From a virus (taxonomy: Duplodnaviria; Caudoviricetes): 63,157 nt of DNA. The notes below the pieces were generated by a model. It did not search any database and was not told the origin of the DNA. It saw only the letters and a program-made list of their open reading frames with translations. Location of the stretch: positions 1 to 63,157 of IMG/VR virus record IMGVR_UViG_3300033272_000024. One strand, written 5' to 3'. A program made the translations under genes and the position numbers. Shown one piece after another: positions 11,523 through 61,723 of this stretch (its first letter is position 1; each line of letters starts with the position of its first letter).

Positions 11523-12037
11523 AAGAAAACTTTACTTACGCACTTAATGCTCTGCTCGGCGATAACCGTGAAGGTGGTTATAGCAATCATTCTTCCGATC
11601 CGGGAGGAATTACCAACTGCGGCGTAACAAAGCTTGTTTGGGAAGAGTGGGTGGGTCACTCAGTAGATGAAAAAGCCATGCGTGCGCTGACTCCCGCTAT
11701 TGTGGCTCCGCTGTACAAGAAAAAGTACTGGGACAAAGTAGCGGGTGACAGCTTACCCTCTGGGATTGACCATGCAGTATTTGACTTTGCCGTTAACTCA
11801 GGCGTAGGTAGAGCAGCTAAGTTCTTACAAAGCGCAGTAGGTGCTACAGAAGACGGCGCTATTGGCCCAATTACTCTTGTAAAAGTAACAGCGCAAGACC
11901 AGCAAAAACTGGTAGCGGCTTACAATGCAGCACGGCTTGCCTTCTTGTATGAACTTCCAATATGGGAAACGTTTCGCGGAGGCTGGGCTAGACGAGTAGT
12001 GGAAGTAACCGCAGAATCCAGCTTTCTCACGGCATAA
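11519..12037 (+). CDS. Endolysin, glycoside hydrolase family 108 with peptidoglycan-binding domain
   Basis: EGGYSNHSSDPGG.TN.G.T catalytic motif; FDFAVNSG; DGAIGP.TL; F.GGW.RR. Confidence 0.92.
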   Translation: MKENFTYALNALLGDNREGGYSNHSSDPGGITNCGVTKLVWEEWVGHSVDEKAMRALTPAIVAPLYKKKYWDKVAGDSLPSGIDHAVFDFAVNSGVGRAAKFLQSAVGATEDGAIGPITLVKVTAQDQQKLVAAYNAARLAFLYELPIWETFRGGWARRVVEVTAESSFLTA

Positions 12038-12045
12038 GGAACCCC

Positions 12046-13896
12046 ATGCCTTTAAAAAAACTTTCTTTGCGGCCCGGAATTAACCGAGAAAACACCCGTT
12101 ACACAAGCGAATCAGGCTGGTATGACGGCGATAAGATTCGCTTCCGCCAAGGCACGCCTGAAAAAATTGGCGGCTGGGAGCGTATTTCTCTAGAGTATTT
12201 TTTAGGTGTTTGTCGTTCTCTATGGAATTGGGTTTCTTTGGGAGGCGTAAAGTTAATCGGCGTCGGTACAAACTTAAAGTTTTATGTATTGCGTGGCGGC
12301 TCTTACTATGATGTAACGCCTATTGAAGATACGACAACTTTGGGCAATAACCCGTTTGAAACAACCAGTGGCTCTCCGATTGTTGTCGTTACCGACTCAA
12401 TTACCAGCTTCTACAACAACAGTTACGTAAGTTTTTCAGGGGCAACAGCAGTAGGCGGAGTAACTGTTTCCGGCGAATACCAGCTTGTGTCAGTAACTGG
12501 CACTACGTATGCAATTGATGTCGGGGTAAGCGCATCTAGCACGGCTACTGGTGGCGGTTCGGCTGTAGTTGCAGCTTATCAAATAGCTATTGGCTCTGAA
12601 ATAGAAGTGCCAAATACAGGCTGGGGCGCAGGAACATGGTCTAGCGGCCCTTGGGGTATTGGAACAACATCTTCAGTACCTCTTAGGTTGTGGAGTCAGG
12701 CGAATTTTGGTGAAAACCTGATCTTTAATCCGCGTGGTGGCGGGCTGTATGTTTGGACGGTAGCGGGAAACGTTTCTAGTAGGGCTACTTTGGTGGCTGA
12801 TGATGCGCAGGCTAACAACGTACCTGTAGCAATGAACAACATTCTTGTCTCTGACGTAAGCCGGTTTGTATTTGCGCTGGGATGCAGTGATATTGGACAG
12901 ACAGTTATTGACCCTTTGCTTATTCGCTGGTCAGACCAAGAAAGCTTATTTGACTGGATGCCGTCTGCAACGAATCAAGCCGGCAGTATTCGGTTGTCTC
13001 AAGGTTCGAAAATCGTTACAGGCATTCAATCAAGGCAAGAAATCTTAGTGTGGACAGATGCAAGCCTGTACTCTATTCAATACGTAGGAGCACCGATTGT
13101 TTACAGCACTAACTTGATTGGCGATAACATTTCCATCATTAGCCCAAACGCTGCTTGTTATGCCAATGGAGTAGCTTACTGGATGGGTGTTGATAAGTTC
13201 TATAAATACGATGGTAGGACGCAAACCCTACGCTGCGACCTACGCAAGTACATTTATGACGATATTAATGCCTCTCAATATGGGCAAATATGTAGCGGGA
13301 GTAATGAGGGTTTTAATGAAGTCTGGTGGTTTTACCCTTCAAAAGATTCACTCATAAACGATAAATACGTTGTATATAACTATTTGGAAGATATTTGGTA
13401 CTTTGGCTTAATGAGTAGAACAGCTTGGCAGGACAGCAGCTTAAGACAAGGCCCAATTGCAGCTACCTACTCTAGTAATATTGTTGTGCATGAAGTTGGT
13501 TCGGACAATGGCGAAGGAATGAATAACGTTGCTATTCCCGCTTATGTAACCTCGGCTGAATTTGACTTAGATGATGGGCATAACTTTTCGTTTGTATGGC
13601 GGATATTGCCAGACATTACTTTCCAAGGATCAACAACTGATTCCCCGAAGGCCACTATGTACCTGTACCCACTGAAGAACTCAGGCTCTGGGTACACCAG
13701 CCCAGCGTCTGTCGGCGGAACAAACAATGCAGAAGTAACAAGAACTGCCGTGCTTCCAATTGAAAAGTTTACAGGGCAAATCTTCACAAGGGTTAGAGGT
13801 AGGCAGTTGGCTATGAAGCTGGAATCTACGGAACTAGGTGTGGCTTGGCAGCTTGGATCGCCGCGAATTGATTTGCGTCCAGATGGCAGACGTTGA
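12046..13896 (+). CDS. Tail hub / DNA stabilisation protein (P22 gp10-like)
   Basis: 616 aa; PEKIGGW, IRWSDQE, EVWWFYP and C-terminal PDGRR motifs; lies before the ejection proteins. Confidence 0.72.
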   Translation: MPLKKLSLRPGINRENTRYTSESGWYDGDKIRFRQGTPEKIGGWERISLEYFLGVCRSLWNWVSLGGVKLIGVGTNLKFYVLRGGSYYDVTPIEDTTTLGNNPFETTSGSPIVVVTDSITSFYNNSYVSFSGATAVGGVTVSGEYQLVSVTGTTYAIDVGVSASSTATGGGSAVVAAYQIAIGSEIEVPNTGWGAGTWSSGPWGIGTTSSVPLRLWSQANFGENLIFNPRGGGLYVWTVAGNVSSRATLVADDAQANNVPVAMNNILVSDVSRFVFALGCSDIGQTVIDPLLIRWSDQESLFDWMPSATNQAGSIRLSQGSKIVTGIQSRQEILVWTDASLYSIQYVGAPIVYSTNLIGDNISIISPNAACYANGVAYWMGVDKFYKYDGRTQTLRCDLRKYIYDDINASQYGQICSGSNEGFNEVWWFYPSKDSLINDKYVVYNYLEDIWYFGLMSRTAWQDSSLRQGPIAATYSSNIVVHEVGSDNGEGMNNVAIPAYVTSAEFDLDDGHNFSFVWRILPDITFQGSTTDSPKATMYLYPLKNSGSGYTSPASVGGTNNAEVTRTAVLPIEKFTGQIFTRVRGRQLAMKLESTELGVAWQLGSPRIDLRPDGRR

Positions 13897-13922
13897 CTTT
13901 CGTACGGATCATGGTGTATAAT
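13893..13922 (+). promoter_or_regulatory. Sigma70-like promoter for the HNH-AP2 gene
   Basis: TTGACT-N18-TATAAT, followed by an AAGGAG RBS. Confidence 0.7.
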
Positions 13923-13948
13923 GAGGTTACTTTTAAAGGAGTAACAAC

Positions 13949-16157: not shown

Positions 16158-19100
16158 ATGGGTTATGTTCGGAAAAAGACTGGCCTTGACCTTAATCCAC
16201 TTAACTTGGTTGAAAAAGCAGTTGATACGGTTGTTGATGTCGTCAATTTTACTGTTGACCAAATCATTGAACCTATAGTTAACACGGTGGTAGACGTTGT
16301 GCAAGCAGCACTAGACGACCCGATTAAAACTATAGCTCAAATTGCAGCGGTAGCAACTAAACAGTATTGGCTTCTTCCTATTATTGCTGGTGCTGATGTT
16401 GCTATAAAAGGTGGCGATTTAGGGGATGTTGCAAAAGCAGTTGCTATTTCTTATGTAATGCAAGAAGTAGCTCAGGGTGCTGGTGAATACGCTGGTGGAG
16501 CAGCTAGTGAGGCAGCAGTGGAAGCAGGATGGAGCGCTGCAAATGCGAAGTTGGCAGGTGAGATTATTGGCACGGGTGCTGGTGGCGCTGCTATAGCTGT
16601 TGTAACGGGTGGCGACCCACTGGAAGCGTTTCTTATTGGCGGCGCAACTGCTGGTGCTGGCGCTGTTCTTGGCAAAGTTTCGGGCTTTGGTGACTTTGCT
16701 AAGAATAATAAAGTAGCTGGCAAAGCTATTGAGGCAATGGTCGTAGCTAAACTGTCCGGAGGAAACGTTTCTGCGGCTGTTATTGGCTCTTTGATAGCAA
16801 CGTCTGGCCTTGTGGCGGATACCATCAAAGAGTTTGACCCATTGAACGGGCAACCCGGAGCTAAGTTTGATGCAGCACAAACAGCTATTATTACAAACGT
16901 ACTTACTGGAACGGCTAGTGCAGCCCTTTCAGGCGGCGATCCATCCCGAGTAATTCAAGCCGCACTGATGAAGGCTGGCTCCAAAGCTATCGGCGAAATG
17001 GCTACCGAAGGGTTTAAGTCGGCAACATCATCTGTTTCAGAATATTTCAATGGAGCAAAAAGCAAAGCCGACATTCTTGATGGAAACATTTCTGCACAAA
17101 ACGAAGCCTACAACAACTACAAAGCCTACGCTGACCCACTAAACGCTAGGGTAGCTGAGCAAACCCGACTAAAAGGCGTGTACGACGCTGCTGTTGCCGC
17201 ACACAACGCAAACCCTACCGAAGCCTCACGCAATACAGCTAATGCCGCTGGTGATGCTTTTGACGCTTACGTCACTAAGCTAAACAAAGACTACGCTGAA
17301 ACCTATAGCCCGAACATTAAGAAGTACGGCGACCAGCTTGATAAGTTGCAGCAAGACTACGCCGTAGCTACGGGTGACTATGAAAAAGCAATGGATGCGT
17401 TTGCTGATAGTACAGACAAACTATCTGCTGTACTTGACCCTATTTACCTGACTAGTAACCGTGCATTTACAGAGGCGCTTGACCCTAACTTTAATGCAGA
17501 TGAGTACCGGGAAATTAACGGCTTGGGCGCTGATGTAGACGTGTACGAAGACTACTTAAACCGTGGACAGCTTGAAGGTTTAGCGACAAACGATAAAGAC
17601 CAAGCGATTATTGAAGCAAGAAACCAATTAAAAGAAGCTACTGGGAAAGACATACCTAACTATATTATTGAGCGTGCGCTTACTACTGACAATGCAAATA
17701 GAGATACTATTGTTAAGCAGTATGCAGAGACTGCAATTCAAGACAATACAAAATCAATATCTACGCGAGAGGATGCAACTAATGCGGTGCTGGGCGCGTA
17801 TGAGCAAGCCGGTTATAGCCAAGAACAAATTAGCGCAAAGATAGATTCTGGTGAAGCTACGGCCAAAGCAAACCAGTTGCTTGAAGGGCAAAAAGCAAAC
17901 GTAGAAAGCTTGCGTCAATACGCTACTGATTTAGGCGCATCCGCAGGAACAGATAGCACTGAGTACAAGGCTGCTTATAAAGATGCTCTTAATGCTATGG
18001 CTGACTATGGCGGCTATGGCGTTACAAAAACTGGCGAAACGTTTGCAACCGCAGAGTACGGAAAACTTGATCCTGATAGGTTGTTGCCAGTAAGTTACCA
18101 CTCTGATACAGGGTGGTATCGTGACCCAGTAACGGGAGAGGCTTATTACAAAGTAGTAGTCACAGGCGGAACTCAAGAATATTTACCTGCGTCAGAAATT
18201 CCAGAGCAAGACATAAGCGCTTTATGGGCCATTGGAAACTCTGCCAATCCACCTGAAAGTGGTGGAGGTAGTTACTTTGGTAGTGGCTCTGGCGTATCCT
18301 CAGGGATGTTTGGCGGCTTGCAGCTTGTCTCAGTAGATGATGCTACTGGTGCCAAAATGTATTCAGACGGATCTGGTATGACGCTGATTGCATACTCTGA
18401 CGGAAAAGGAAAAGTAATTAACAACAACATGGAAGTTGAGTTGATTACGCCAGAAGATTTGGCTAAGTTGATGGGAGAAGTACCAATAGCTAAGCCTCCT
18501 ACGCCAGCAGCAGAAGTAAAACCCGTAGAAGAGCTTACTCAGCCAGAAGCTTACAACAAAGCCAAACAAGATGCTTTGGAAAGCGCGCAAACAGACCTGA
18601 AAAATAGCTACCAAACAGCAGACGAAGTTAAAGCTGCAATAGAGTCTTTTGGCTACAAGGCTACCCCACAAGAAATCCAGTCATTTGTTGGCGAAAAAAC
18701 GCCTGACCAAATGAAGTTTGATGTAGAAAAATATGTAGATCCTAAAGTGGTTAGTCGTGCCGAGGCGAAGGCTGCATACGCTGCGATAGGTATATCTAAA
18801 CCTACTAAAGCCGATATTGATAAATTAGTTGGACAATACTCGCAAATATATTTAAATGGAAAAGCTGCGGCCAACTTAGATGCTGCTCGGTACAACTCTA
18901 TTCAGCAACAACTAGATAACTTAAACATAACTCCAACAGATATTGAGGGTATGCGATCTTCTCTTACAGAGGCTATCCAAACAGCTATAGACTTTGGATT
19001 ACAGGGAGATGCTGCTTTACAGGCTGCAATTAGTGCAGTAGCAGAGTCGCAGCAAACTAGTAAAGAAGCGCTATTATCTAAATTAGGCACATCAGAATCT

Positions 19101-20480
19101 GCACTAAAATCTGAGTTTGCTGCTGGTTTCGCTGGTGTATCTCAGCAACTAAACGAAAAATACGCCGCTCTGACTGCTTCGCAAAAAGCTGAAGTTGATG
19201 CGCGTGTACAACAAGGCGCTGACTTGGGTGCAGCAATGGCTAGAGTGCAGTCGGCTCTTGAAGGGCAGATTGCTGGCGTAAGTGCTGACCTTAAAGAAGC
19301 TATCGACATAAACGAAGCTGCTGGCATGAGTAGAGATGCCGCAATTTCTAAGGCTGTTGATGATGTGGCGACAAGCGTTGGAACTACTCGTGCAGATTTA
19401 TTGGCCAAGCTTGGCGCTACAGAGCAAAGCCTGTTGGAAAAATTCCAAGCTGGACAAGATAAAACACAAGAGCAAATTGCTGGTGTAACTGCTGAAATGC
19501 AGGCGCAGTACGAGACATTAACGGCTGGACAAAAAGCCACTGCTGATGCTTTAGTAGCTCAAGGCAAAACGTTTCAAGAAGCAATTGATGCTGCACAAGC
19601 CGAAACAGCAGGGCAAATTGGTGACTTGACTACTGAAATGCAAGCGCAGTACGCCTCTTTGACCGACGCTCAAAAAGCAACTGCCGACGCTTTGATTGCC
19701 CAAGGTGAAACGACGCAGCAAGCAATTGCCACTGCTCAAGCAGAGACAACGGACTTAATAAACACCAAGACAGATGCAATTAACACCCGTATTGCAGAGC
19801 TAGTTGCCCAAGGCGCAAGCCAGCAAGCAGCCACTACGCAGGCGTTTGCAGAAGTAAATGAAAAGCTTGGCACACAAGGCCGTGGCCCGAATCAGAGCGA
19901 CTTGGATGCTTTAGAGCAGATGATTAGCGGAACACGGTCTACCGACCTTTCTTACGATACAAACAATGATGGAAGAATTGACGGGTCAGACCTAACATTT
20001 TTGACTGGTATTGTTAATGGGGATGCCGGTGGATCAGGATTTAATGCCCCATCTGGTTCGCCTTGGGCTGCTACAGGCTTGTATGGAAGCTTGGCTGATG
20101 CTGAAGCTGCACGAGCACAAGATGCTGCAAACCAAAAGGCAGCAGGCGAAGCAGCAGCAGCACAAGCAGCTACGAACGAAAAGAATGCACAGATACGCGG
20201 AGCCGGTGGTCGAGCAGCACAAGCCATGCAGCAGTTTGCTGGCTCTGCCCCTACATTGATACAACAAGCTACACAGCAAGTATCTGCGCCGATATACGGA
20301 CAAGCAGTAGAAGCTTTTGACTTTGGCGCACCTTTGGACTTTAACTACTTTAACCCTAGCAAGGAAAAACAAGGTAGCCAAACAGGTGGGCAAACAACTA
20401 AAATGGCATCTGGCGGGTATCTTGACGACCTGCTGGGTGAAGATATGTCAGTAGATGACCTACTGAAACTCTTACGCTAA
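16158..20480 (+). CDS. Large internal virion / ejection protein (1440 aa)
   Basis: Gly/Ala-rich hydrophobic N-terminus, coiled-coil repeats, EF-hand/dockerin-like DTNNDGRIDGSDL, C-terminal MASGG. Confidence 0.6.
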   Translation: MGYVRKKTGLDLNPLNLVEKAVDTVVDVVNFTVDQIIEPIVNTVVDVVQAALDDPIKTIAQIAAVATKQYWLLPIIAGADVAIKGGDLGDVAKAVAISYVMQEVAQGAGEYAGGAASEAAVEAGWSAANAKLAGEIIGTGAGGAAIAVVTGGDPLEAFLIGGATAGAGAVLGKVSGFGDFAKNNKVAGKAIEAMVVAKLSGGNVSAAVIGSLIATSGLVADTIKEFDPLNGQPGAKFDAAQTAIITNVLTGTASAALSGGDPSRVIQAALMKAGSKAIGEMATEGFKSATSSVSEYFNGAKSKADILDGNISAQNEAYNNYKAYADPLNARVAEQTRLKGVYDAAVAAHNANPTEASRNTANAAGDAFDAYVTKLNKDYAETYSPNIKKYGDQLDKLQQDYAVATGDYEKAMDAFADSTDKLSAVLDPIYLTSNRAFTEALDPNFNADEYREINGLGADVDVYEDYLNRGQLEGLATNDKDQAIIEARNQLKEATGKDIPNYIIERALTTDNANRDTIVKQYAETAIQDNTKSISTREDATNAVLGAYEQAGYSQEQISAKIDSGEATAKANQLLEGQKANVESLRQYATDLGASAGTDSTEYKAAYKDALNAMADYGGYGVTKTGETFATAEYGKLDPDRLLPVSYHSDTGWYRDPVTGEAYYKVVVTGGTQEYLPASEIPEQDISALWAIGNSANPPESGGGSYFGSGSGVSSGMFGGLQLVSVDDATGAKMYSDGSGMTLIAYSDGKGKVINNNMEVELITPEDLAKLMGEVPIAKPPTPAAEVKPVEELTQPEAYNKAKQDALESAQTDLKNSYQTADEVKAAIESFGYKATPQEIQSFVGEKTPDQMKFDVEKYVDPKVVSRAEAKAAYAAIGISKPTKADIDKLVGQYSQIYLNGKAAANLDAARYNSIQQQLDNLNITPTDIEGMRSSLTEAIQTAIDFGLQGDAALQAAISAVAESQQTSKEALLSKLGTSESALKSEFAAGFAGVSQQLNEKYAALTASQKAEVDARVQQGADLGAAMARVQSALEGQIAGVSADLKEAIDINEAAGMSRDAAISKAVDDVATSVGTTRADLLAKLGATEQSLLEKFQAGQDKTQEQIAGVTAEMQAQYETLTAGQKATADALVAQGKTFQEAIDAAQAETAGQIGDLTTEMQAQYASLTDAQKATADALIAQGETTQQAIATAQAETTDLINTKTDAINTRIAELVAQGASQQAATTQAFAEVNEKLGTQGRGPNQSDLDALEQMISGTRSTDLSYDTNNDGRIDGSDLTFLTGIVNGDAGGSGFNAPSGSPWAATGLYGSLADAEAARAQDAANQKAAGEAAAAQAATNEKNAQIRGAGGRAAQAMQQFAGSAPTLIQQATQQVSAPIYGQAVEAFDFGAPLDFNYFNPSKEKQGSQTGGQTTKMASGGYLDDLLGEDMSVDDLLKLLR

Positions 20481-22391: not shown

Positions 22392-24170
22392 ATGAATCTC
22401 GTCAAAGCACAAGACCTCGCTAAAGAGCTTTCAATCCCAGAGCTACAGCAATATGCCAATGGCTCTAACCCTGAAATCATGCCGCCTTATGTTGCGCTTG
22501 GTGCTCTACAGGCAAAAGAGTCAATGCAGAAAAAAATGGCTGCAATGCAAGGCGCTGCACAGGGTGAGCAGCCTAGCGTTAAAGAGCAAGTTGAGCAGAA
22601 AGCTGGACTGATGGCGTTGCAAGGCCAACAACAGCAACAAGCCCAACAGCAAATGACGCAACAGATGCAGCATCGGCCTATGCCCACGACTGAGAACGTT
22701 CCACAACCAGAGCCACAACCACAAGTTGAGCCAATGGGCATGGCGCGTGGTGGGCTTACCCGCCTGCCCGTTAACTTCAACTTTCGCCAAGGTGGGATTA
22801 TTGGCTATGCTGGCCCAGAAGGTAGCCTTGTAGGTAAAAAGCCTTTGGATGAAGACGCGCAAATTGCACTACAAGAAGCTCAGCGTACAGGCGACCGTGA
22901 AGCCATGATGTTGACGATTAGGAAGCTGGCTGCTGCTGGATACGATGTTGCAACGCTTATTCCTCGCGGAGTGATGGGAGCAACTGAATCTGTTGTTCGT
23001 GGAGTGGCCGACTCCCGCTTGGGTCGTGCATTTGGTTTGGATGCAATACCTAAATTGCCTGAATCGGCTTATGGCGGAGATCGCACTAGCATGACTCCTA
23101 TGATGGATAGAGTTAACCGTGAAGAAGAGGCTGGTCAGAACCCTGCTGAACCACAGATGCCACAATCCGCACCGATGGCTGGGCCACAAGCAGCGCCGCC
23201 TACTGGCCTGCCTGCTGCAATGCCGCAGCCACAAGCTATGCCTAAGCCGCAAATGCAACCGCAAGCGGGGCCACAAGGTATGCCGCAAGTTAAACCGCCT
23301 GCCGCACCACAAATGCCGTTTGCTCCACAAGCCCCAATTGCGCCTGAAGCCCCGGTTGTTTCAGACCAAGACAAACTGATTGCCGAAGAGATTGCACGGC
23401 GCAAAGCGTTTGGCGTTGAGGGAGAAGCTGGTGCTGGCGCTGAAAGCCGAATGGCTGACCGAAGGAAACGTTTCGAGGAAACACGGCCAACTGGCCTTGA
23501 CGACTTGATTCGAGTATTCGGCCAAGCTGGACAGTACAAAGGACTGAGTGGAATGGGGCCAGCTTATACGGCTAACGAAGACAGCAAGCGTGCAGCACGG
23601 TCTAAGTTTGAGGCTGAAATGGAAACCCAGCAGTCAGGCATTGAAGACAAGCGCCGTACTGAAGGCGTTGGACGCGCTGCTGGGATTGGTACTGGCCTTG
23701 CTGGTCTGCGTGAAATGCAACAGAAAGAAAAAGAGTCCACATCAAGAAACGTTACGCTGCTTGAACAATATCGCATTCAAGCTGCCGCACAGAATCGTCC
23801 GGGTGAAGTGGAACGACTGCTTGCTAGATACACTGAACTGAAGCTTAAAGACCCTGCCGCTGCTGAAGAAATGATGAAAAACATCATGCAGATTAAGACT
23901 GGCTTGCCGGGTGGCAAGGGCACTATGACGCGGGATCAGGCTATTGATAACGTAGGCAAGCTTCTTACAGACCCAGTGCTACAGTCGAGAATGCAGAAAG
24001 AAGCTGCTGCTGCGCTTGGCAAAAAGGATATAACTGTTTCTGAAATGCAAGAGTATTTTGTGCAGAAGGCTATGGGCGGCGGTTCATCTGGCATAGGCGG
24101 AACCGATACAACAAAGCCAACAGCCGGAACACGATTAAAATTTGACGCTCAGGGCAACCAGATCAAATAA
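22392..24170 (+). CDS. Internal virion / ejection protein (Q/P/M-rich)
   Basis: Position; MARGG and FRQGG motifs; low-complexity linkers. Confidence 0.6.
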   Translation: MNLVKAQDLAKELSIPELQQYANGSNPEIMPPYVALGALQAKESMQKKMAAMQGAAQGEQPSVKEQVEQKAGLMALQGQQQQQAQQQMTQQMQHRPMPTTENVPQPEPQPQVEPMGMARGGLTRLPVNFNFRQGGIIGYAGPEGSLVGKKPLDEDAQIALQEAQRTGDREAMMLTIRKLAAAGYDVATLIPRGVMGATESVVRGVADSRLGRAFGLDAIPKLPESAYGGDRTSMTPMMDRVNREEEAGQNPAEPQMPQSAPMAGPQAAPPTGLPAAMPQPQAMPKPQMQPQAGPQGMPQVKPPAAPQMPFAPQAPIAPEAPVVSDQDKLIAEEIARRKAFGVEGEAGAGAESRMADRRKRFEETRPTGLDDLIRVFGQAGQYKGLSGMGPAYTANEDSKRAARSKFEAEMETQQSGIEDKRRTEGVGRAAGIGTGLAGLREMQQKEKESTSRNVTLLEQYRIQAAAQNRPGEVERLLARYTELKLKDPAAAEEMMKNIMQIKTGLPGGKGTMTRDQAIDNVGKLLTDPVLQSRMQKEAAAALGKKDITVSEMQEYFVQKAMGGGSSGIGGTDTTKPTAGTRLKFDAQGNQIK

Positions 24171-30796: not shown

Positions 30797-30809
30797 AGAA
30801 ACGTTTCGT

Positions 30810-44755: not shown

Positions 44756-44922
44756 TGACCAAAAAAGAGCTATTGCAAATGGATACCCTGCGTGCTCAGT
44801 TGGCAGCAGAGCAGCAGCGAAGCGAAAAAGCCATAACCGCCTACCGGGAAAACTTGTACGAACTGGTTGAGTGCAAGATAAAACTTGAGCGGATTCAGAA
44901 AGTTATAGAAGGGCAAGAGTAA
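44752..44922 (+). CDS. Small coiled-coil protein (56 aa; below cutoff)
   Basis: Read manually; overlaps the helicase stop and the primase start. Confidence 0.6.
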   Translation: MMTKKELLQMDTLRAQLAAEQQRSEKAITAYRENLYELVECKIKLERIQKVIEGQE

Positions 44923-48607: not shown

Positions 48608-49120
48608 TCACTCCGCTTGCATCATGTAGTTGGCGCTACTCCAGCATCGCACGCTGTCGGGGTCTTCGGTAATGGTCACGCTGTAGTCTTCGCAACCATC
48701 GGGTATATCTAGGCCGGATTCCGCTCCTTCCAATGTGATACCAAGCATTTCGGAAAACCTCGCGGCGAAGTGGTCGCAGTCCATCGGGTCGGAATCTTGC
48801 AAGACAATCCGCAACTCTTTTACCCCGTGGCGGTCTTTGAGAATTGCAAAGGTGGGAAACGTTTCCAACAACTCCTTTGCCTGCTCGGCAAGTTGTCCGG
48901 CATTGCTGGCGCGGCGTTGCAGTTCCTCGCGCTCTGAGGCTGCTGTATCGCAGAGGGCGACAATTGAATTGTTAAGAATTCGCGTGATGTGATAAATCGT
49001 TTCTTGAAGCTGAATGAGGTCGGTAGCCTTATAGGATTCCGTCTTGATAGATAGCAGGGCTTGATCTTTTTCGTGGTTGATCTGCATTTGTAGGTTCAGA
49101 AAAATTTGATCGTGGCTCAT
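48608..49120 (-). CDS. Hypothetical early protein (acidic C-terminus)
   Basis: ATGA overlap; AAGGAG RBS. Confidence 0.7.
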   Translation of the reverse strand: MSHDQIFLNLQMQINHEKDQALLSIKTESYKATDLIQLQETIYHITRILNNSIVALCDTAASEREELQRRASNAGQLAEQAKELLETFPTFAILKDRHGVKELRIVLQDSDPMDCDHFAARFSEMLGITLEGAESGLDIPDGCEDYSVTITEDPDSVRCWSSANYMMQAE

Positions 49121-50884: not shown

Positions 50885-50991
50885 AAACGAAACGTTTCGT
50901 TTTTTGCAAGTTTGGTTATATAGAACGACAAAGTACATGACTAAAAGCTATAACAGCGAAACGTTTCGCGGTCATAAAAAGGAAACGTTTC
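50885..50991. promoter_or_regulatory. Cluster of three GAAACGTTTC palindromes, including an 18-bp perfect palindrome at 50885-50902
   Basis: Copies at 50889, 50958 and 50982. Confidence 0.85.
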
Positions 50992-51010
50992 GTTTTTCGG
51001 AGATTTGGTT

Positions 51011-51289
51011 ATGTTAAGAAACGAAAAGATAAGGAAAAGTTATGAAGAATGTATGGAGAGCGGCATGAGTCCCGCGCAGAAGGAAGTGTTTTTGGTGATT
51101 GATGAGTGGTGGAAGAGGTATGGGTATTCGCCGTCGATCAGGGATATAGCGTATGTGAGGGGAAAGATGGGGTTGGCGAGTACGCATAAGATTGTGGAGC
51201 GGCTGGTGAAGTTGAAGGTGATAAAGAAGATGGATGGAGCGGGGAGGACGATCCGCCCGACTTACATTCAGTTTAGACACTTGGAGTAA
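51011..51289 (+). CDS. LexA-type winged-HTH DNA-binding domain protein (no peptidase domain)
   Basis: SPAQKEVF..I..W...GYSPSIRDIA...G..S..KIV..L.....I......RTI; alternative start at 51065. Confidence 0.82.
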   Translation: MLRNEKIRKSYEECMESGMSPAQKEVFLVIDEWWKRYGYSPSIRDIAYVRGKMGLASTHKIVERLVKLKVIKKMDGAGRTIRPTYIQFRHLE

Positions 51290-51292: not shown

Positions 51293-52795
51293 ATGACGGA
51301 TTTTGCAAGTATTGAGAAGTTGATGGGTAGTCTGCCGATACAGGAGCAGGAGTTGTTGCTGGGGCAAATTGAGGAGTATCGAGCGGCGCTGGCTAGGGAG
51401 GAAGCTCAGAAGAGTTTCATGGCGTATGTGAAGATGATGTGGCCGGGGTTTGTTCATGGACGGCATCATGCGGTTATGGCAAAAAAATTCGAGGCTATCG
51501 CCAATGGCACTTTGAAGAGACTGATTATTAATATGCCGCCTCGGCATACGAAGAGTGAGTTTGCTTCGTATCTACTGCCTTCTTGGTTTTTGGGCAGGAA
51601 TCCGGGAAAGAAGATTATCCAGACATCTAATACGAGTGATCTGGCGGTTAACTTTGGCCGTAAGGTTCGGAACTTGGTGGACAGTGAGTTGTATGGGAAA
51701 GTGTTTCCCGGTGTGGCGTTGAGGCAGGACAGTAAGTCTGCGGGTCGTTGGGCTACTAATCACAATGGCGAGTATTTTGCTATTGGTGTTGGCGGGACTG
51801 TTACTGGTAAGGGTGCGGATTTGCTGATTATTGATGATCCTCATTCAGAGCAAGAGGCTGCTTTGGCGGCTGGTGATCCGTCTGTGTTTGATAAGACGTA
51901 TGAGTGGTACACCTCTGGGCCGCGTCAGCGACTGCAACCGGGCGGGGCCATTGTTGTAATTATGACGAGATGGGGCCAAAAAGATTTGGTTGGCCGAATT
52001 GTTAAAGATGCCGCCATGAGGGATAAATCGGATGAGTGGGAGATTATTGAGTTCCCTGCGATCATGCCTAGTGGGAATCCGCTATGGCCTGAGTTCTGGT
52101 CGTTTGAGGAACTGGAGGCGCTAAGGGAAGAGTTGCCTCCAGCTAAGTGGAATGCTCAGTACCAGCAAGCCCCCACGGGAGAAGAAGGTGCTTTGGTTAA
52201 GAGGGAGTGGTGGAAAAAATGGCCGGGAGAAGAGCCACCACGGTGCGAGTTTATTATCCAGTCATGGGACACGGCGTTTACTAAAAGCGAGAGGTCTGAC
52301 TATTCGGCGTGTACGACATGGGGAGTTTTCCACATGAACGAAGACCCGACTGATGTAAATATTATCTTGCTGGATGCGTTTAAGAAGAGGATGGAGTTTC
52401 CTGAGCTTAAGGACAAAGCGGTTCAAATGTATAAGGAGTGGGAGCCTGATGCCTGCGTAGTTGAGGCCAAGGCTTCTGGTGCGCCGTTGATATTCGAGCT
52501 TAGGGCTATGGGGATTTCGGTATCTGATTACACGCCTAGTCGGGGTAATGATAAGTTTGTGCGACTAAACTCCGTGACTGATTTGTTCCGTAGTGGTAAA
52601 GTGTGGGCACCTGACACTCGTTGGGCTAGTGAGGTTGTAGAAGAGATTGCCGCATTTCCAAATGGCGAGCACGATGACCTTGTAGACTCAAGCACGCAGG
52701 CACTAATTAGATTTAGGCAAGGTGGCTTTATTCGTCTTGAATCAGATGAACGTGACGAAGTAAGAAGCTTCCGCCGAAAAAACGCTTATTATTAG
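51293..52795 (+). CDS. terL: Terminase large subunit
   Basis: INMPPRHTKS Walker A, TGKGADLLIIDDP, QSWDTA, EAKASG, FPNGEHDDLVDS. Confidence 0.96.
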   Translation: MTDFASIEKLMGSLPIQEQELLLGQIEEYRAALAREEAQKSFMAYVKMMWPGFVHGRHHAVMAKKFEAIANGTLKRLIINMPPRHTKSEFASYLLPSWFLGRNPGKKIIQTSNTSDLAVNFGRKVRNLVDSELYGKVFPGVALRQDSKSAGRWATNHNGEYFAIGVGGTVTGKGADLLIIDDPHSEQEAALAAGDPSVFDKTYEWYTSGPRQRLQPGGAIVVIMTRWGQKDLVGRIVKDAAMRDKSDEWEIIEFPAIMPSGNPLWPEFWSFEELEALREELPPAKWNAQYQQAPTGEEGALVKREWWKKWPGEEPPRCEFIIQSWDTAFTKSERSDYSACTTWGVFHMNEDPTDVNIILLDAFKKRMEFPELKDKAVQMYKEWEPDACVVEAKASGAPLIFELRAMGISVSDYTPSRGNDKFVRLNSVTDLFRSGKVWAPDTRWASEVVEEIAAFPNGEHDDLVDSSTQALIRFRQGGFIRLESDERDEVRSFRRKNAYY

Positions 52796-52802: not shown

Positions 52803-55241
52803 ATGAGCATTGAACAATCCCTCAATCCAGCGCCCTTGGGCATTTCTAGTTTAGTTGCCGAAGAAGAGCCAACAATTGAAATTGAAATTGACGGCCTAGA
52901 TGGCGTTGATATGGAAGGCTTTGAAATTGAGTCGTTTGAAGACAGTGAATTTGGCGCTAACTTGGCCGAAGAAATGTCTAACAACGAACTGCAAAGCGTT
53001 GCCAATGAGATTGTTGAATTGGTTGATGCCGACATCAACAGTCGAAAAGACTGGGTAGATATGTATGTCAAGGGCTTAGAAGTCCTTGGTATGAAGTATG
53101 AAGAGCGTACTGAGCCGTGGTCAGGTGCTTGTGGCGTGTTTTCTACTGTGCTTACTGAAGCTGCCGTTCGATTCCAAAGTGAAACTATTTTGGAAACGTT
53201 TCCCGCGCAAGGCCCGGTCAAGACGGAAATCATCGGCGCTATTGATAAGCTGAAAGAAGAAGCTGCTGAGCGAGTTCGTGAAGACATGAACTACCAGTTG
53301 ACTGAGAAAATGCCTGAATACCGGCCAGAGCATGAAAAGATGCTCTATTCGCTGGGTCTGGCTGGCTCTGCTTTCAAGAAGGTTTACTACGACTCTTCAA
53401 TCCGCCGTCAGGTGTCCATGTTTATCCCAGCGGAAGACATGATTATTCCTTACGGTTCTTCTAGTTTGATTAGCTCAGAGCGCGTGACGCACATCATGCG
53501 TAAAACGCCTAATGAAGTACGTAAGCTTCAAGTGTCTGGCTTCTACCGTGATGTTGACTTGGGTGAACCAGTAGCAATTCACACAGACATTGAGAAAAAG
53601 AAGGCTGAAGATCAAGGTTTTAGCGTTACAGACGATAACCGCTACCAGCTTCTTGAGGTTCACATTGACTACGACTTGCCGGGGTATGAAGATGAGGATG
53701 GCGTTGCCCTTCCCTACGTCATTACCATCGACCGAAACACAAATGAAGTGCTTTCGATCCGCCGTAACTACGAAGAAGATGACGAAAACCGTGAAAAGCG
53801 GCAACATTTCGCTCAATACACGTACATTCCCGGCTTTGGCGCTTATGGCATTGGCTTAATCTCCCTGATTGGCGGGTATGCCCGTGCAGGAACGTCGCTA
53901 ATCCGTCAATTGATTGACGCTGGTACGCTTTCTAACCTGCCGGGTGGCCTGAAATCCCGTGGTTTGCGTATTAAAGGCGACGATACTCCCATTGCACCGG
54001 GTGAGTTCCGTGATGTTGACGTTCCATCTGGAACTGTGCGCGATAATATTATGGCTTTGCCGTATAAAGAGCCAAGTCAAGTATTGGCCTCTTTGCTGCA
54101 AACTATTACCGACGAAGGCCGTCGTCTGGGTTCTATTGCTGACATGAATATCAGCGATATGAGCGCGAACTCTCCAGTTGGTACTACGTTAGCTATCCTT
54201 GAGCGCCAACTTAAGAATATGTCGGCAGTGCAGGCGAGAATTCATTACTCGATGAAGCAAGAGTTTAGGATGCTGAAAAGCATTATTAGAGACTACACGC
54301 CTACAGAGTATTCGTACAACCCAATTGGTAATAACCGCAAAGCCAAGCAAAGCGATTACGATTTAGTTGAAGTTATTCCGGTCAGCGACCCTAATAGCTC
54401 GACAATGGCGCAGCGGATCATGCAGTATCAGGCCGTGATTCAGTTGGCCCAAGGCGCTCCGCAGATTTATGATTTGCCACAGCTTCATCGCCAAATGATT
54501 GAAGTGCTTGGAGTTAAAAACGCTGAGAAGTTAGTGCCGGTTGAAGACGACATGACGCCGCGTGACCCAGTTAGTGAGAATATGGCATTCCTCACTGGCA
54601 AGCCAACAAAAGCTTTTATCTATCAAGACCACGATGCACACATTGCAGTGCATACGGCCATGATGCAAGACCCAACATTGATGGCGCAAATCGGGCAAAA
54701 CCCGCAAGCCCAGAAAATGATGGCTGAGATTCAGGCGCACATTGCAGAGCACTTGTCTTTTGCTTATCGCAAGAAGGTTGAAGAGCAGTTGGGCGTGCCA
54801 ATGCCAGCGCCTAATGCTAAGTTGCCAGAAGAAGTTGAAGTTCAGCTTTCCCGCATGGTTGCACAAGCTGCACAGCAAGTTTTGGCTCAGAGCAAAGGTC
54901 AGGCGCAAGAGCAAGAAGCTCAAAAGCAATCACAAGACCCAATTGTGCAAATGCAGCAGGCCGAGTTGGAAATTAAGAAAACTGAAGCACAAGCCAAGAT
55001 TGCAAAAATCCAAGGCGACTTGGAAGTTAAGAAGCAAGAGTTGCAGTTGAAGATGCAAAAAGCTAATAGCCCACAAGCTAACGTAGCTCAGTCTACGGCG
55101 GAACGTCAGCAGCTTGAGTTGCAAATGATGGCTAAACGTCATCAACAAGAAATGCAACAAGAAGCCGAATCGCATGAACAGAAAATGGCAATCGAACGCC
55201 AAACTGCCATGCAACGAAATCAGATTAATAATAGGAGTTAA
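52803..55241 (+). CDS. Portal protein (P22-like, with Q-rich barrel)
   Basis: 812 aa directly after terL; GSAFKKVYYD; C-terminal coiled coil. Confidence 0.85.
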   Translation: MSIEQSLNPAPLGISSLVAEEEPTIEIEIDGLDGVDMEGFEIESFEDSEFGANLAEEMSNNELQSVANEIVELVDADINSRKDWVDMYVKGLEVLGMKYEERTEPWSGACGVFSTVLTEAAVRFQSETILETFPAQGPVKTEIIGAIDKLKEEAAERVREDMNYQLTEKMPEYRPEHEKMLYSLGLAGSAFKKVYYDSSIRRQVSMFIPAEDMIIPYGSSSLISSERVTHIMRKTPNEVRKLQVSGFYRDVDLGEPVAIHTDIEKKKAEDQGFSVTDDNRYQLLEVHIDYDLPGYEDEDGVALPYVITIDRNTNEVLSIRRNYEEDDENREKRQHFAQYTYIPGFGAYGIGLISLIGGYARAGTSLIRQLIDAGTLSNLPGGLKSRGLRIKGDDTPIAPGEFRDVDVPSGTVRDNIMALPYKEPSQVLASLLQTITDEGRRLGSIADMNISDMSANSPVGTTLAILERQLKNMSAVQARIHYSMKQEFRMLKSIIRDYTPTEYSYNPIGNNRKAKQSDYDLVEVIPVSDPNSSTMAQRIMQYQAVIQLAQGAPQIYDLPQLHRQMIEVLGVKNAEKLVPVEDDMTPRDPVSENMAFLTGKPTKAFIYQDHDAHIAVHTAMMQDPTLMAQIGQNPQAQKMMAEIQAHIAEHLSFAYRKKVEEQLGVPMPAPNAKLPEEVEVQLSRMVAQAAQQVLAQSKGQAQEQEAQKQSQDPIVQMQQAELEIKKTEAQAKIAKIQGDLEVKKQELQLKMQKANSPQANVAQSTAERQQLELQMMAKRHQQEMQQEAESHEQKMAIERQTAMQRNQINNRS

Positions 55242-55243: not shown

Positions 55244-55441
55244 ATGGAATCCAAAGTATTTGATATTGCTATCGCCAAGATTGACGAACATATCAAGCTT
55301 TTGGTAGATGTCTTAAGTGGTGGTGGAGCTAAATCCTACGATCACTATAAAGAACTGTGCGGGAAAATCCAAGGTTTCCAATCCGCGCAGTATGAACTTG
55401 GCGACCTTGTGCGTAGACTTAAGGAAAATGATGAAGACTAA
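55244..55441 (+). CDS. Conserved small head-module protein
   Basis: AGGAG RBS; G..SY..Y...CG.IQG. Confidence 0.75.
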   Translation: MESKVFDIAIAKIDEHIKLLVDVLSGGGAKSYDHYKELCGKIQGFQSAQYELGDLVRRLKENDED

Positions 55442-55832
55442 ATTTGATGTTGGCTCAGTTGATCTATCTGGTTTGCTTAATACCAATCAGGAAGATAAAG
55501 CCAAACAAGTTCCAGACCCAGTGACTTACCATATTCTTTGCGTGCTTCCGAAAGCGGAAGAAGAGTATGAAGGTGGACTGATTAAATCGGCGCAGACAAT
55601 GCAGTTTGAGGAGTTGCTTTCTCCCGTACTGTTTGTAGCAAAGATTGGCCCTGATGCCTTCAAAGACGAGAAACGTTTCCCGTCCGGCCCATCCTGCAAA
55701 GTGGGTGATTTTGTTTTGGTTCGACCTAATACCGGCACACGAATGAAGATTCATGGGCAGGAAATGCGTCTTATCAATGACGATAGTGTCCAAGCAGTTG
55801 TGCAAGACCCGCGTGGCGTGAAACGAACTTAA
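55428..55832 (+). CDS. groES: GroES-like co-chaperonin (Cpn10)
   Basis: P..YHIL...EGGLI...V.KIGP...CKVGDFVL...G....G.E.RLINDD.V.AVV. Confidence 0.85.
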   Translation: MMKTKFDVGSVDLSGLLNTNQEDKAKQVPDPVTYHILCVLPKAEEEYEGGLIKSAQTMQFEELLSPVLFVAKIGPDAFKDEKRFPSGPSCKVGDFVLVRPNTGTRMKIHGQEMRLINDDSVQAVVQDPRGVKRT

Positions 55833-60001: not shown

Positions 60002-60258
60002 TGGCTAAGAAAAAAGGCCCGGTTCTCTCGGTTGGTCGCGGTGAAAAGCTGCCTGCCTCAAAAGGGGCTGGGCTGACTGCCAAAGGCCGTGCTAAATACA
60101 ACGCAGCTACAGGTAGCAACTTGAAGGCTCCACAGCCTCAAGGCGGCGCTCGTAAAGATTCATTCTGCGCTCGTATGTCCGGTATGCCGGGGCCAATGAA
60201 AGACGAAAAAGGCAAGCCCACCCGCAAGGCAGCTTCACTAGCAAGATGGAAGTGCTGA
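60001..60258 (+). CDS. Small basic conserved protein (GL..KGR...SFCARM...RWKC)
   Basis: TAATG overlap; strongly basic. Confidence 0.75.
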   Translation: MAKKKGPVLSVGRGEKLPASKGAGLTAKGRAKYNAATGSNLKAPQPQGGARKDSFCARMSGMPGPMKDEKGKPTRKAASLARWKC

Positions 60259-60259
60259 T

Positions 60260-60448
60260 ATGACCGAACACGCTAACACTGTTAAACAAATGGCCGATGT
60301 CGTTTCGGTAACCGCTACGATTGGATCGTTCTTGTCCATCCTTACGCCCGTATTCGGCTTGATTGGTGCCGTCTGGACATTGATGCGTATAGCGGAGATG
60401 ATTGCCGGAAAACCCTTCTCAGAATTTATCCGTAAAAAAGACAAGTAA
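60260..60448 (+). CDS. Small membrane protein (holin-like)
   Basis: Hydrophobic core and basic tail. Confidence 0.6.
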   Translation: MTEHANTVKQMADVVSVTATIGSFLSILTPVFGLIGAVWTLMRIAEMIAGKPFSEFIRKKDK

Positions 60449-60491
60449 TTTTCAACAGGCCGACAAGGCCATAACTCTCAAAGGTGGCGAT

Positions 60492-60677
60492 ATGGCTTCA
60501 AAAATGAACCCCGGCTTCATGGCGATGATGGCAAAGAAAAAAGACGGCACGCACAAAATGCCGGACGGCAAGAAGATGAATATGGGCGGCATGAGTTATG
60601 CCAAAGGCGGTGGTATTGAGTCCAAGGGCAAAACCCAAGGCAAAAATATTGCTATGAAAAAAGGCGGGAAGTGCTAA
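60492..60677 (+). CDS. Small basic GG-motif protein
   Basis: MNMGG, YAKGG, MKKGG and KGKTQGK; AAGGTGG RBS. Confidence 0.65.
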   Translation: MASKMNPGFMAMMAKKKDGTHKMPDGKKMNMGGMSYAKGGGIESKGKTQGKNIAMKKGGKC

Positions 60678-61723
60678 TGTCTAAAAATACCGAACCCATG
60701 AAAATGGACAAATCCAAGGACAAAGCCATGATTAAAAAAGCTTTTAAGCAGCATGACTTTCAAGAACACAAAGGCGGCAAAGGAACTAAGCTGGCTTTGG
60801 CTAAAGGTGGCAACGTCAAAACGAAACGTTTCGCGGAAGGTGGCATGACTGATGAAGAGCAAGAAGCCGCTGACAAAGCTGCTGGCTTGGCTGCATCCAA
60901 TAAAGAACCGTCTATTGGTTTCCTTGAGCGCTTGAAAGCTGGAAATATTGACGCCAAAGGCTCTGATGCTTACAACAAGTTTGGCGCTGGTCGTGGCGCT
61001 GCTGACCGTGCGGCCCGTGTACCCGTTGAAGACGCAGTACCAGTCAAAGTAAACCGTATGCCTCAGATGGGCGAAGATGAACGCCCTGCTGCTACTGGTA
61101 TGAGTGCAGCTACGCCTAGCGTCAAGCCTAAAGCAAAAGCTCCTACGCCTATGCCTGCGCCTGTCTCTGCTCCTGTTGCGCGTCCAAAGATTTCAGCATC
61201 AATGTCTTCGGCCTCTGCGCCAGATGAATTAGCTGAGTACTCTGCAAGCCGTAAGTCTGCTGGCGCTGGTCGTGGCGCTGTTGGTGGTGCTGCGGCTGGT
61301 GAAGCTGATAAGTATCAGAAAGACAAAGCTGAGAAGGAAATGTTTTCACCTCCTTCTAAAGAAGACATTGATAAAGGCATGGAAGCTGCCGCCATGATTC
61401 TTGGCCCCGGTACTAGTCTTAAAGCTCTTCAGGCTTTGGCTAAGAAGCTGGCTTCACGTGGCGCAAGCGGCGCAAGCACAGGCAAGATGGTTAGCACTAA
61501 ACTTGGCGGTGATGCAGTTGGCAAGCTGCGGTCAAGATCAAGCGCTCCTTACTTGAAAGAGTTGGGTAACTCGCCAACTAAAATTGGCAGTGAAACAAAG
61601 CAGATCGGCATGAAGTCTGGCGGCAAAGTTCAGCGAAACGTTTCGTCTAAAAAGTCATCTTCTGCATTTAAGCGCGGGGATGGTATCGCCACTAAAGGCA
61701 AAACTCGTGGAAAGATGGTGTAA
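60677..61723 (+). CDS. Low-complexity basic GG-motif protein
   Basis: LAKGG, FAEGG, MKSGG; ends GIATKGKTRGKMV. Confidence 0.7.
   Translation: MSKNTEPMKMDKSKDKAMIKKAFKQHDFQEHKGGKGTKLALAKGGNVKTKRFAEGGMTDEEQEAADKAAGLAASNKEPSIGFLERLKAGNIDAKGSDAYNKFGAGRGAADRAARVPVEDAVPVKVNRMPQMGEDERPAATGMSAATPSVKPKAKAPTPMPAPVSAPVARPKISASMSSASAPDELAEYSASRKSAGAGRGAVGGAAAGEADKYQKDKAEKEMFSPPSKEDIDKGMEAAAMILGPGTSLKALQALAKKLASRGASGASTGKMVSTKLGGDAVGKLRSRSSAPYLKELGNSPTKIGSETKQIGMKSGGKVQRNVSSKKSSSAFKRGDGIATKGKTRGKMV

Follow-up and report, generated by a model that had tools for sequence, protein, structure and literature searches.

Introduction

ParB and Noc bind palindromes of 14–16 bp, and Noc uses many dispersed sites of this kind. 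The parB gene may itself contain a parS site, as is the case for spo0J; a few SopB sites are dispersed in the plasmid-prophage N15; and the IncP plasmid RK2 (∼60 kb) carries about a dozen copies of the KorB operator OB, some of them at promoters and some far off. Dispersed sites are also familiar from temperate phages: the stoperators of Cluster A are many short copies of a repressor site, spread over the phage genome including its genes, that silence transcription; they are asymmetric, oriented with transcription, and read by the immunity repressor. Here we describe a dispersed palindrome in the uncultivated virus record IMGVR_UViG_3300033272_000024 (63,157 bp; called W below), the window of the analysis being the whole record. 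The 10-mer GAAACGTTTC occurs 19 times in W, and from sequence comparison we give about an even chance to the reading that these copies are parS- or KorB-operator-like predicted sites bound by dimers of an orphan ParB-like protein that the phage itself encodes, a product of 263 amino acids (aa) from the plus strand at 42452–43243.

A comparable palindrome has been described in the Cluster O mycobacteriophages (Corndog). According to the accessible part of that report, 34 copies of the 17-bp palindrome TGTTCGGNNNCCGAACA are dispersed and invariant, roughly a third lie in coding DNA, a dimeric protein was predicted to bind them, and they are contrasted with the stoperators of Cluster A (PMC4351075). 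The Cluster O phages are not obviously temperate, and their genomes encode a ParB-like domain protein and a DNA polymerase III (pol III) beta clamp; the authors left undecided what the palindrome does and discounted a genome-stability role for the ParB-like protein (PMC4351075). Cluster O is like W in combining a dispersed palindrome with a ParB-like gene, and its beta clamp is shared with G016, a member of a second phage clade described below. It is unlike W in that motif and hosts are unrelated, and neither lineage variants nor helix covariation are reported in that part of the paper (PMC4351075). Another orphan ParB fold with a role outside segregation is found in the phage ParB-like activators of thymine dioxygenases (5mYOX), which the accessible text describes as being without an obvious DNA-binding domain (PMC13229309). 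Unlike these, the W protein has a helix-turn-helix (HTH), and no dioxygenase family was matched among the W open reading frames (ORFs).

The system in W resembles KorB and OB in that a ParB-fold HTH protein accompanies dispersed short palindromes, and the KorB structures 8qa8 and 8qa9 are among its best fold matches. Unlike KorB, it belongs to a phage, which looks lytic; no ParA/IncC or KorA/TrbA partner was found in a Pfam screen of 97 W ORFs of up to ∼350 aa (21 families matched); its 19 sites are mostly intragenic; and the GERR glutamate is lost. The likeness is better called a resemblance than membership. With ParB–parS and Noc and its binding sites (NBS), W shares the fold of the N-terminal domain and HTH (7bnk, 6t1f, 7nfu), and the presence of a site inside the ParB-like gene in some relatives (the G016 clade and the L374 group) recalls the spo0J case. 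It differs from them in being viral, in having no partition ATPase in the screen, in a C-terminus formed by a coiled coil or zinc ribbon, and in a half-site unlike that of parS. Stoperators are unlike the W motif, which is a perfect palindrome and thus the same on both strands, and neither an integrase nor a repressor was found among the 97 ORFs.

Enrichment of the palindrome and selection at the DNA level

An earlier reading of the W sequence by a model (the original prediction) had reported the GAAACGTTTC palindrome, and all 19 exact copies were found where it had placed them. In 100 dinucleotide-preserving shuffles the mean count was 0.08 and the largest 1, and GAAACGTTTC is the most over-represented 10-mer of W. 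The string AAACGTTT occurs 24 times, 19 of them within GAAACGTTTC. The five one-mismatch copies that had been listed (18036, 19566, 21160, 43743 and 62448) are present as well, but that list was incomplete: seven more lie at 235, 687, 9088, 16623, 17083, 23746 and 58664, making 12 in total and 31 sites with at most one mismatch where 2.37 are expected. The statement that many copies extend to CGAAACGTTTCG holds for seven of the 19 and not for the others; the base 5′ of GAAACGTTTC is G in 9 copies, C in 7 and A in 3, and the base 3′ of it is G in 13, C in 4 and T in 2.

With a greedy ORF set, 15 copies are coding and four are intergenic (30798, 50889, 50958 and 50982). The coding copies are read in all three frames, as ETF (5), NVS (4) and KRF (6), as had been noted. 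A codon-preserving shuffle had been named as the check that could refute the enrichment, and the enrichment persisted: 100 synonymous-codon shuffles within genes gave a mean of 0.96 copies and a maximum of 3, against the 15 observed in coding sequence. Moreover, every four-codon peptide context in W that is able to spell GAAACGTTTC does so (15/15), compared with none of three in the closest relative, G001. Because the copies exceed the codon shuffles and occupy all compatible contexts, selection in W acted on the DNA, as originally claimed, and in addition made compatible peptides more numerous. For six of the W sites the surrounding block can be aligned to G001, where the same peptide is encoded by other codons (LETFPA at 53193, DEKRFP at 55670) or the sequence has diverged; the sites in coding DNA were created through synonymous and some non-synonymous changes.

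The tail-fibre block (1–11.9 kb), described earlier as empty, has no exact copy but does contain three one-mismatch copies. On the circular map the motif-free stretch from 61.6 kb to 11.9 kb measures 13,365 nt, a length that 19 randomly placed sites would leave often enough (P = 0.25) for it to lack significance. Overall spacing is random-like (P = 0.50 for the coefficient of variation).

Lineage-specific variants among the relatives of W

G001 is 61,958 bp long, collinear with W at ∼65–92% nucleotide identity, and of the same GC content; its terminase large subunit (TerL) is 92% identical. It has no exact copy of GAAACGTTTC, and in a relative-wide count none was found in any of 15 TerL relatives, G001 included, six of which are at least 90% complete. 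A portal-gene copy in six short TerL relatives was considered as an intermediate stage and set aside, being accounted for by the conserved ETF peptide and codon chance. At 38796–38817 and 60123–60140, matching W sites 30798 and 50982, G001 carries GGGG(GG)TAACTAGTTACCCC(CC), which has the GGTAAC half-sites of many relatives but is longer by two bases at its center.

Homologues of the ParB-like protein were found in at least 502 viral loci, and among the best 80 of these, many carry repeated palindromes of their own with the same build as that of W. For example, TGGTAACGTTACCA is repeated in L374, L377 and L379, TGGCAACGTTGCCA in L390, L393 and L394, TGACAACGTTGTCA in L382, TGCAACGTTGCA in L395, TGGAAACGTTTCCA in L404 and ATTAAACGTTTAAT in L403, while L344 and L370 have a different palindrome, CGTTAAATTTAACG. 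In L344, as also in L370, four copies of CGTTAAATTTAACG lie within ∼430 bp upstream of a winged helix-turn-helix (wHTH) gene (19476–19902), and the ParB-like helix reads VSPQLVTAVK.

Whole records were searched for the dispersed-site pattern GNAACGTTNC (G-N-AACGTT-N-C), with the reversed pattern as control. W has 22 such sites, G037 has 16, G031 (GCAAC type) and G035 have 12 each, G033 has 10, and G041 and G046 have 6 each; the reversed control gave 0–4, and seven of 20 records had no GNAACGTTNC site at all. An outer frame, TGG-N-AACGTT-N-CCA, recurs among the sites of the relatives, and GTAAC and GAAAC half-sites mix freely in G033, G035 and G037, hybrids included. Judged by these sequences, the system spans the clade, with half-sites particular to each lineage, and W is its extreme member. 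In G042 (L451–L454), three copies of TTTAGCTAAA are present at 21412, 21964 and 27039, with half-sites that resemble the KorB operator.

The same motif in a second, unrelated phage clade

A scan of viral contigs for two GAAACGTTTC copies within 35 bp returned 100 loci and led to a second group of phages. G016 and G017 have 23 GTGGAAACGTTTCCAC-type copies each and G029 has 22, in genomes of 58–60 kb, and G019 has 12 in 25 kb. All copies in this group sit in a 14–16-mer of the form (G/C)TGGAAACGTTTCCA(C/G), and with a looser pattern the G016/G029 clade has 39 (G016) and 38 sites. The 39 sites of G016 (L189–L191), approximately one per 1.5 kb, are made up of 23 GAAACGTTTC, 6 GCAACGTTGC and ∼10 hybrid G-N-AACGTT-N-C copies.

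No nucleotide similarity was found between W and G016, G017 or G029. The group has a GC content of 0.53 against 0.48 in W, and the gene content of G016 differs from that of W, with Mom, an N6/N4 methylase, pol III beta, CsrA and a tail tube; its TerL has only distant cultured relatives (≤35%). The codon-level signature is found here as well: 17 of 20 and 17 of 19 peptide contexts are used. Eleven G016 sites are alignable to G029, and seven of these are kept exactly in blocks that are ∼70% identical. G016 also encodes two CsrA homologues and a fragment with a lipid-desaturase domain.

One 4.6-kb contig (L246, G050:C496) was binned in a metagenome-assembled genome (MAG) of the planctomycete Rhodopirellula, with a GC content of 0.58 compared with 0.53. 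It encodes a G016-type homologue of the ParB-like protein (tblastx E 1e-17) and has four GTGGAAACGTTTCCAC-type sites; the remaining 7.3 Mb of the MAG contain zero copies of the 12-mer, so that all four are on the contig with the ParB-like gene. The contig, perhaps a piece of a phage genome, is a hint that the G016 clade has planctomycete hosts.

A ParB-fold protein is the best candidate reader

The proteins common to W and the G016 group are ERF, the product of ORF 35997–36548, a helicase, TerL and the 263-aa ParB-like protein, and all of them are also present in G001. ORFs were clustered across 14 genomes, comprising six site-rich and six site-poor complete genomes of the W clade plus G016 and G029. 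The only clusters with members both in most W-clade genomes and in G016/G029 are the helicase, the ParB-like protein and ERF (12/12 W-clade genomes each) and TerL (11/12), and the ParB-like protein is the only one of them with a DNA-reading motif. No accessory gene tracked the sites in the clustering, the best cluster occurring in four of six site-rich and one of six site-poor genomes, and no gene was present in W and the G016 group but missing from G001 (tblastn 1e-3, blastp 0.5). A 69-aa protein (40389–40598) was rejected as a candidate, as it has a homologue in G001 and is absent from G016 and G017.

The original prediction had named three candidate readers. By its fold, its presence in both clades and the link between its helix and the sites, the ParB-like protein is the best of them. 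The second, the LexA-type wHTH protein, comes out weaker and is treated below. The third candidate, the putative ribbon-helix-helix (RHH) protein (31567–31989), has no Pfam match at E ≤ 0.01 and is 83% identical in motif-free G001; nothing supports a reader role for it.

A profile search against PDB sequences matched the N-terminal ∼100 residues of the ParB-like protein to sulfiredoxins and ParB/Spo0J (E 1e-4 to 2e-3). ParB_N scores 1e-8 in two of nine family members, and weak HTH_23, HTH_17 and HTH_37 matches occur in the family. The AlphaFold2 model, built with 44 homologues (pLDDT 89.6), has an alpha/beta N-domain, helices at 121–128 and 132–143, a disordered, low-confidence linker, and long C-terminal helices at 178–201 and 206–261, the latter two with high pLDDT and with coiled-coil-type matches in Pfam and PDB. 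In Foldseek, ∼148 columns covering the N-domain and DNA-binding domain match ParB of M. xanthus and C. crescentus, Noc and KorB (E 3e-8 to 2e-6), and the matches include the structures of ParB–parS, Noc–NBS and KorB–OB complexes (7bnk, 6t1f, 7nfu, 8qa8 and 8qa9). A ParB/Srx N-domain is therefore indicated by both the PDB profile and Foldseek, a central HTH by the model and the fold matches, and on the model the 263-aa protein is a ParB-fold HTH protein, so that the earlier label "ParB-like" was right at the level of fold. Because no ParA/CbiA-type family is among the 21 Pfam families matched in the 97 W ORFs, this is not a parABS partition system, and the protein is at most an orphan ParB. The predicted C-terminus is a long coiled coil in the W clade and a Cys-rich zinc ribbon in the G016 clade. 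Residues Q16, R18, G56, R59 and N91 are invariant in 44 ParB-like sequences and putatively correspond to CTP motifs of ParB. In a metagenome scan, the closest relative of the W protein was 68% identical and encoded on a 2-kb contig without AACGTT.

The recognition helix is the most divergent part of the protein pair from W and G001, with five of ten residues different against 66% identity overall: residues 130–139 read VSRVYVANLR in W (22 sites) and VSGAWVGRLR in G001 (0 sites). Covariation of the helix with the sites was assessed on a tree of 44 homologues from which the helix columns were excluded, sites being called present at ≥0.9 per 10 kb. Histidine or arginine (H/R) at helix residue 3 was compared with the presence of G-N-AACGTT-N-C sites, and 36 of the 44 rows fit (17 + 19 concordant, 7 + 1 discordant). 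Among seven independent pairs, ∼5.2 changed the same way and 0.0 the opposite way, with a median sign-test p of 0.0625. In the 14 complete genomes, H/R was found in all eight that are site-rich and in one of six that are site-poor (hypergeometric 9/3003 = 0.003, uncorrected for kinship). The neighboring residues also go with particular half-sites: VSHT pairs with GCAAC in L393/L394, L390 and L412, but L381 and L408 carry GGTAAC; VSHP and VSHV pair with G(T/A)AAC; and VSY (L382) pairs with GACAAC. Finally, sites occur within or beside the ParB-like gene itself, at +713 nt within the gene in all five G016-clade lineages and at +438 nt, in or beside it, in L374, L376, L377 and L379; contig L246, with its gene and four sites, adds another instance. 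No palindrome of at least 10 bp was found upstream of the ParB-like gene in eight relatives.

Proposed mechanism and its weak points

Dimers of the ParB-like protein would bind the palindromes. By analogy with KorB, ParB and Noc, they would be loaded there and exert their effect along the DNA, starting both from intragenic sites and from promoter-proximal ones (50889, 50958 and 50982 ahead of the late block, 42080 at the divergent junction and 30798 at the convergent end). The likeliest action would be KorB-like long-range silencing or transcription timing; a coat that compacts or shields the DNA is an alternative. The dispersed protein-binding-site system proposed originally fits all results, whether its purpose would be coating, silencing or partition. 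A broader generalization, which we offer tentatively as the less probable claim, is that abundant aquatic phages have orphan ParB/KorB-like proteins which use 6–39 parS-like sites, self-written by each lineage throughout its genome and through its genes, to coat, time or shield the lytic genome. Between sister phages, specificity would be re-set by a change of one or two residues where the recognition helix begins. The putative recognition code, as it appears from these sequences, would be H/R with G at −5, Y with A, and T with C at −4.

Several observations count against the ParB-like protein as reader. The covariation p value of 0.0625 is not significant at 0.05, and the presence call behind it is loose and, where loci are short, noisy. 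In seven rows H/R is present but sites are absent, one row (L395, VSA) has sites without H/R, and G042 has VSH with just 2 sites. The ParB-like gene of W contains no exact copy, the nearest being at 42080 and a one-mismatch copy at 43743. Pfam gave no match at E ≤ 0.01 for the W protein alone, and a ParB-like match was found in none of the 100 paired-motif viral loci (in the stretches retrieved, with empty BLAST output taken as none). The CTP switch is doubtful as well. The GERRxRA box is among the residues of ParB that bind and hydrolyze CTP, and the corresponding box of the ParB-like protein reads DGFHRY, with F in place of the glutamate of GERR; a switch appears doubtful because this glutamate is replaced. 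Two further objections, the position at which sites are most often conserved and the standing of a host factor, are taken up with the alternatives below.

If the ParB-like protein is the reader, the system would be a natural read-out of a ParB recognition code, with dozens of natural protein–site pairs, distinguished by one residue and one base at a time, from which DNA reading by the ParB helix could be studied. Site gain would be fast-evolving (0 sites in G001 versus 19 in W, at 92% TerL identity), and the use of all possible peptide contexts in W would show a DNA-binding system strongly reshaping coding sequence. It would also make a ParB-fold protein a genome-wide organizer or silencer of a lytic phage that has no partition ATPase, connect the unexplained dispersed palindromes of Corndog-like phages with their ParB-like genes, and, the group being related to the widespread HTVC023P-type viruses, could be a mechanism common in natural waters.

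Alternative readers and origins of the sites

Our ranking of possible readers puts the ParB-like protein first, at roughly even chances, a host factor next as an unlikely but serious contender, and the wHTH protein of W last, as unlikelier again. The wHTH protein (94 aa, 51005–51289, plus strand, probable ATG at 51011) is encoded directly upstream of TerL and could be either a reader of the sites or the product of a gene regulated by them. If it is the reader, the sites would be its operators, it would autoregulate a wHTH–TerL late operon from the three upstream ones, and many more would have been gained in W. LexA-type dimers bind palindromes, and this protein has a LexA_DNA_bind domain (E 3e-9), the sole transcription-factor-type domain in the Pfam screen of W. 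Its gene is preceded, within 260 nt, by lineage-specific perfect palindromes in nine of 13 genomes: three in W, two 24-mers in L403, two each in L374 and L344, and one each in G031, G036, G041, G001 and G039. This is the most conserved site position, as would be expected of an autoregulated wHTH gene, and so stands among the objections to the ParB-like protein. On the other hand, the wHTH protein is 85% identical in copy-free G001, where the helix differs by one residue (ASTHKIVERL versus ANTHKIVERL) while the palindromes differ, and near-identical helices in L374 (NTKKIVDRL), L344 (STKKIVDRL) and L362 (NTKKIVDKL) stand beside GGTAAC, CCGTTAAAT and TAAAC sites, respectively. Nor was a homologue found in the G016 clade, either among the 25 of 33 Pfam families listed for 97 G016 ORFs or by protein comparison. 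These points make it a weaker candidate than the ParB-like protein. On the sequence evidence, we take it that the ParB-like protein would control the late operon from the upstream sites, with the wHTH protein still a live rival.

A host protein, for example a LacI/GalR repressor of the Cra/FruR kind, might instead read the sites, the phage exploiting or titrating it and the variants following the hosts. This explanation keeps a small but real share of the probability at the expense of the ParB-like protein. In the literature text that was accessible, the GAAACGTTTC string appears in bacterial work on Cra/FruR and LacI-family DNA-binding domains and not in phage work. The operator consensus of the LacI family is a 14-bp palindrome of the type TGNAANCGNTTNCA, which the G016 14-mer TGGAAACGTTTCCA fits. 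The W flanks fit this frame only in part, with the inner 10 bp kept, S at −1/+1, and G at −1 in nine of 19 copies, and in the GGTAAC-type variants a T stands in place of the consensus A. Paired copies are found in a wide range of bacteria (at least 120 loci) and in many unrelated viral contigs (at least 100 loci), the AACGTT core is common to two unrelated phage clades, and no accessory phage gene tracks the sites, all of which a host factor would accommodate. A host factor does not, however, predict the link between the ParB helix residue and the sites or the presence of sites inside ParB-like genes; lineage-specific variants keep the same position upstream of wHTH–TerL; and in the one candidate host MAG the 12-mer is on the ParB-like contig alone. 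LacI operators are few and lie at promoters, whereas W and G016 have 19–39 sites per 60 kb inside genes, and no LacI-type domain was found among the 97 W ORFs or the G016 families listed above. We think it very improbable that the enrichment arose without any protein binding, as a by-product of biased repair or modification, as a host signature, or as RNA hairpins or terminators. Sequence-biased repair or modification has been proposed for HIP1 of cyanobacteria, and G016 encodes Mom and an N6/N4 methylase, but no methylase was matched among the 97 W ORFs. The palindromes upstream of the wHTH gene in low-copy relatives are long enough (18–24 bp) to fold as hairpins, and T-runs follow some G016 sites; GAAACGTTTC alone, however, gives a stem of 3 bp at most, and the surroundings of the intergenic copies yielded neither terminator-like nor promoter-like calls. 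Fifteen of the 19 copies are coding, with protein sequence altered to make them, and the sister genome G001 has the same GC content and zero copies. As for a host signature, the candidate host MAG (G050, 7.3 Mb) is not enriched, and a scan of genome contigs for the paired motif gave scattered unrelated taxa and no dense genome. The densest bacterial locus, in a Saccharibacteria MAG, was rejected as a host signature, being a tandem array and a different thing: its contig has eleven GAAACGTTTC copies within ∼750 bp, in two near-identical arrays (L215, 1999–2736), which are unrelated to the dispersed phage sites.

Positions of the sites and other features of W

Positions 1–123 of W are identical to 63035–63157 (a terminal repeat of 123 bp), and W is a complete genome, either terminally redundant or a circular assembly. 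A long plus-strand late block runs from 51005 across the record end to 30796, and a minus-strand block runs from 42371 back to 30810. Next comes a short plus-strand block (42452–45764) that encodes the ParB-like protein, the helicase and one more ORF product, and small genes fill a second minus-strand block, which runs from ∼50.8 kb back to 45747. Of the four strand-switch regions mapped, three have sites, namely the start of the late block, its convergent end, and the divergent junction by the ParB-like gene.

At the late-block start, the copy at 50889–50898 forms the center of AAACGAAACGTTTCGTTT, a palindrome of 18 bp that lies ∼120 nt upstream of the wHTH–TerL operon, that at 50958–50967 lies in the 14-bp palindrome GCGAAACGTTTCGC upstream of the wHTH gene, and that at 50982–50991 is 29 nt upstream of its ATG (51011). 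A unit of ∼40 bp, GAAACGTTTCGTTTTT-(6 nt)-(A/G)(G/A)TTTGGTTAT, occurs twice here (50885–50923 and 50977–51016); the second overlaps the ribosome site and ATG of the wHTH gene, and the first has no ORF behind it. The fourth intergenic copy (30798–30807) begins 2 nt past the stop of ORF 24179–30796, at the convergent junction with the minus-strand block, where G001 has GGGGGGTAACTAGTTACCCCCC. Promoter and terminator prediction around the intergenic copies gave no sigma-70-like promoter and no intrinsic terminator. The copy at 42080–42089 is near the divergent junction, ∼370 nt upstream of the ParB-like gene, and it is uncertain whether the real ORF there is 41652–42260 (plus) or 42066–42371 (minus).

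Among the copies within plus-strand genes, ETF is read at 11966–11975 (ORF 11519–12037) and at 53193–53202 in the portal gene (52803–55241), where G001 encodes the same LETFPA via GAAACATTCC. NVS is read at 12767–12776 in ORF 12046–13896, which encodes a virion structural protein (phrog_3287), at 16762–16771 (ORF 16158–20480) and at 61635–61644 (ORF 60671–61723), which also contains the KRF copy at 60823–60832. The remaining KRF copies are at 23465–23474 (ORF 22392–24170; the aligned G001 sequence is unrelated), 25801–25810 (in the 2205-aa ORF 24179–30796), 44990–44999 (ORF 44922–45764; GAAGCGTTAC in G001) and 55670–55679 (ORF 55317–55832), where the same DEKRFP is encoded in G001 via AAAGCGATTT and all differences are synonymous. 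In minus-strand genes, ETF is read at 33497–33506 and 33542–33551, both in ORF 33381–33785 and the latter within the 16-bp palindrome AACGAAACGTTTCGTT, and at 48856–48865 (ORF 48608–49120). An NVS copy at 36938–36947 takes up the last codons of ORF 36931–37173 (minus) and is a few bases upstream of the start of ORF 36580–36930 (minus).

The TerL gene (51293–52795, plus strand) is the first large gene of the late block, behind the three intergenic sites. TerL, portal, tail-fibre and virion proteins place W near the aquatic podoviruses HTVC023P and DSL-LC04, and by TerL its nearest cultured phages are DSL-LC04, HTVC027P/023P and 023Pt_psg01 (52–59% identity), whose records were uninformative as to the host. 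A word search of the accessible part of an HTVC023P-type genome paper returned no mention of ParB or palindromes. Among the Pfam families matched in W are ERF, SSB, PD-(D/E)XK, Toprim, HNH, lysozyme, and capsid and adaptor families, and the 97-ORF screen gave no integrase, ParA, DNA methylase, LacI-type domain, RNA polymerase or DNA polymerase. The 2205-aa protein (24179–30796) is probably an injected virion protein; it matches phrog_18222 (E 3e-167), a group of large phage proteins without an assigned function, and shows a weak match to a DarB-like antirestriction family, and megablast of this 6.6-kb gene against cultured phages gave no match. Further Pfam matches in W are to a Rap1a immunity protein (4e-14) and to PF10118, a predicted metal-dependent hydrolase (1e-42), with weak matches to Cpn10 and Endonuclease VII.

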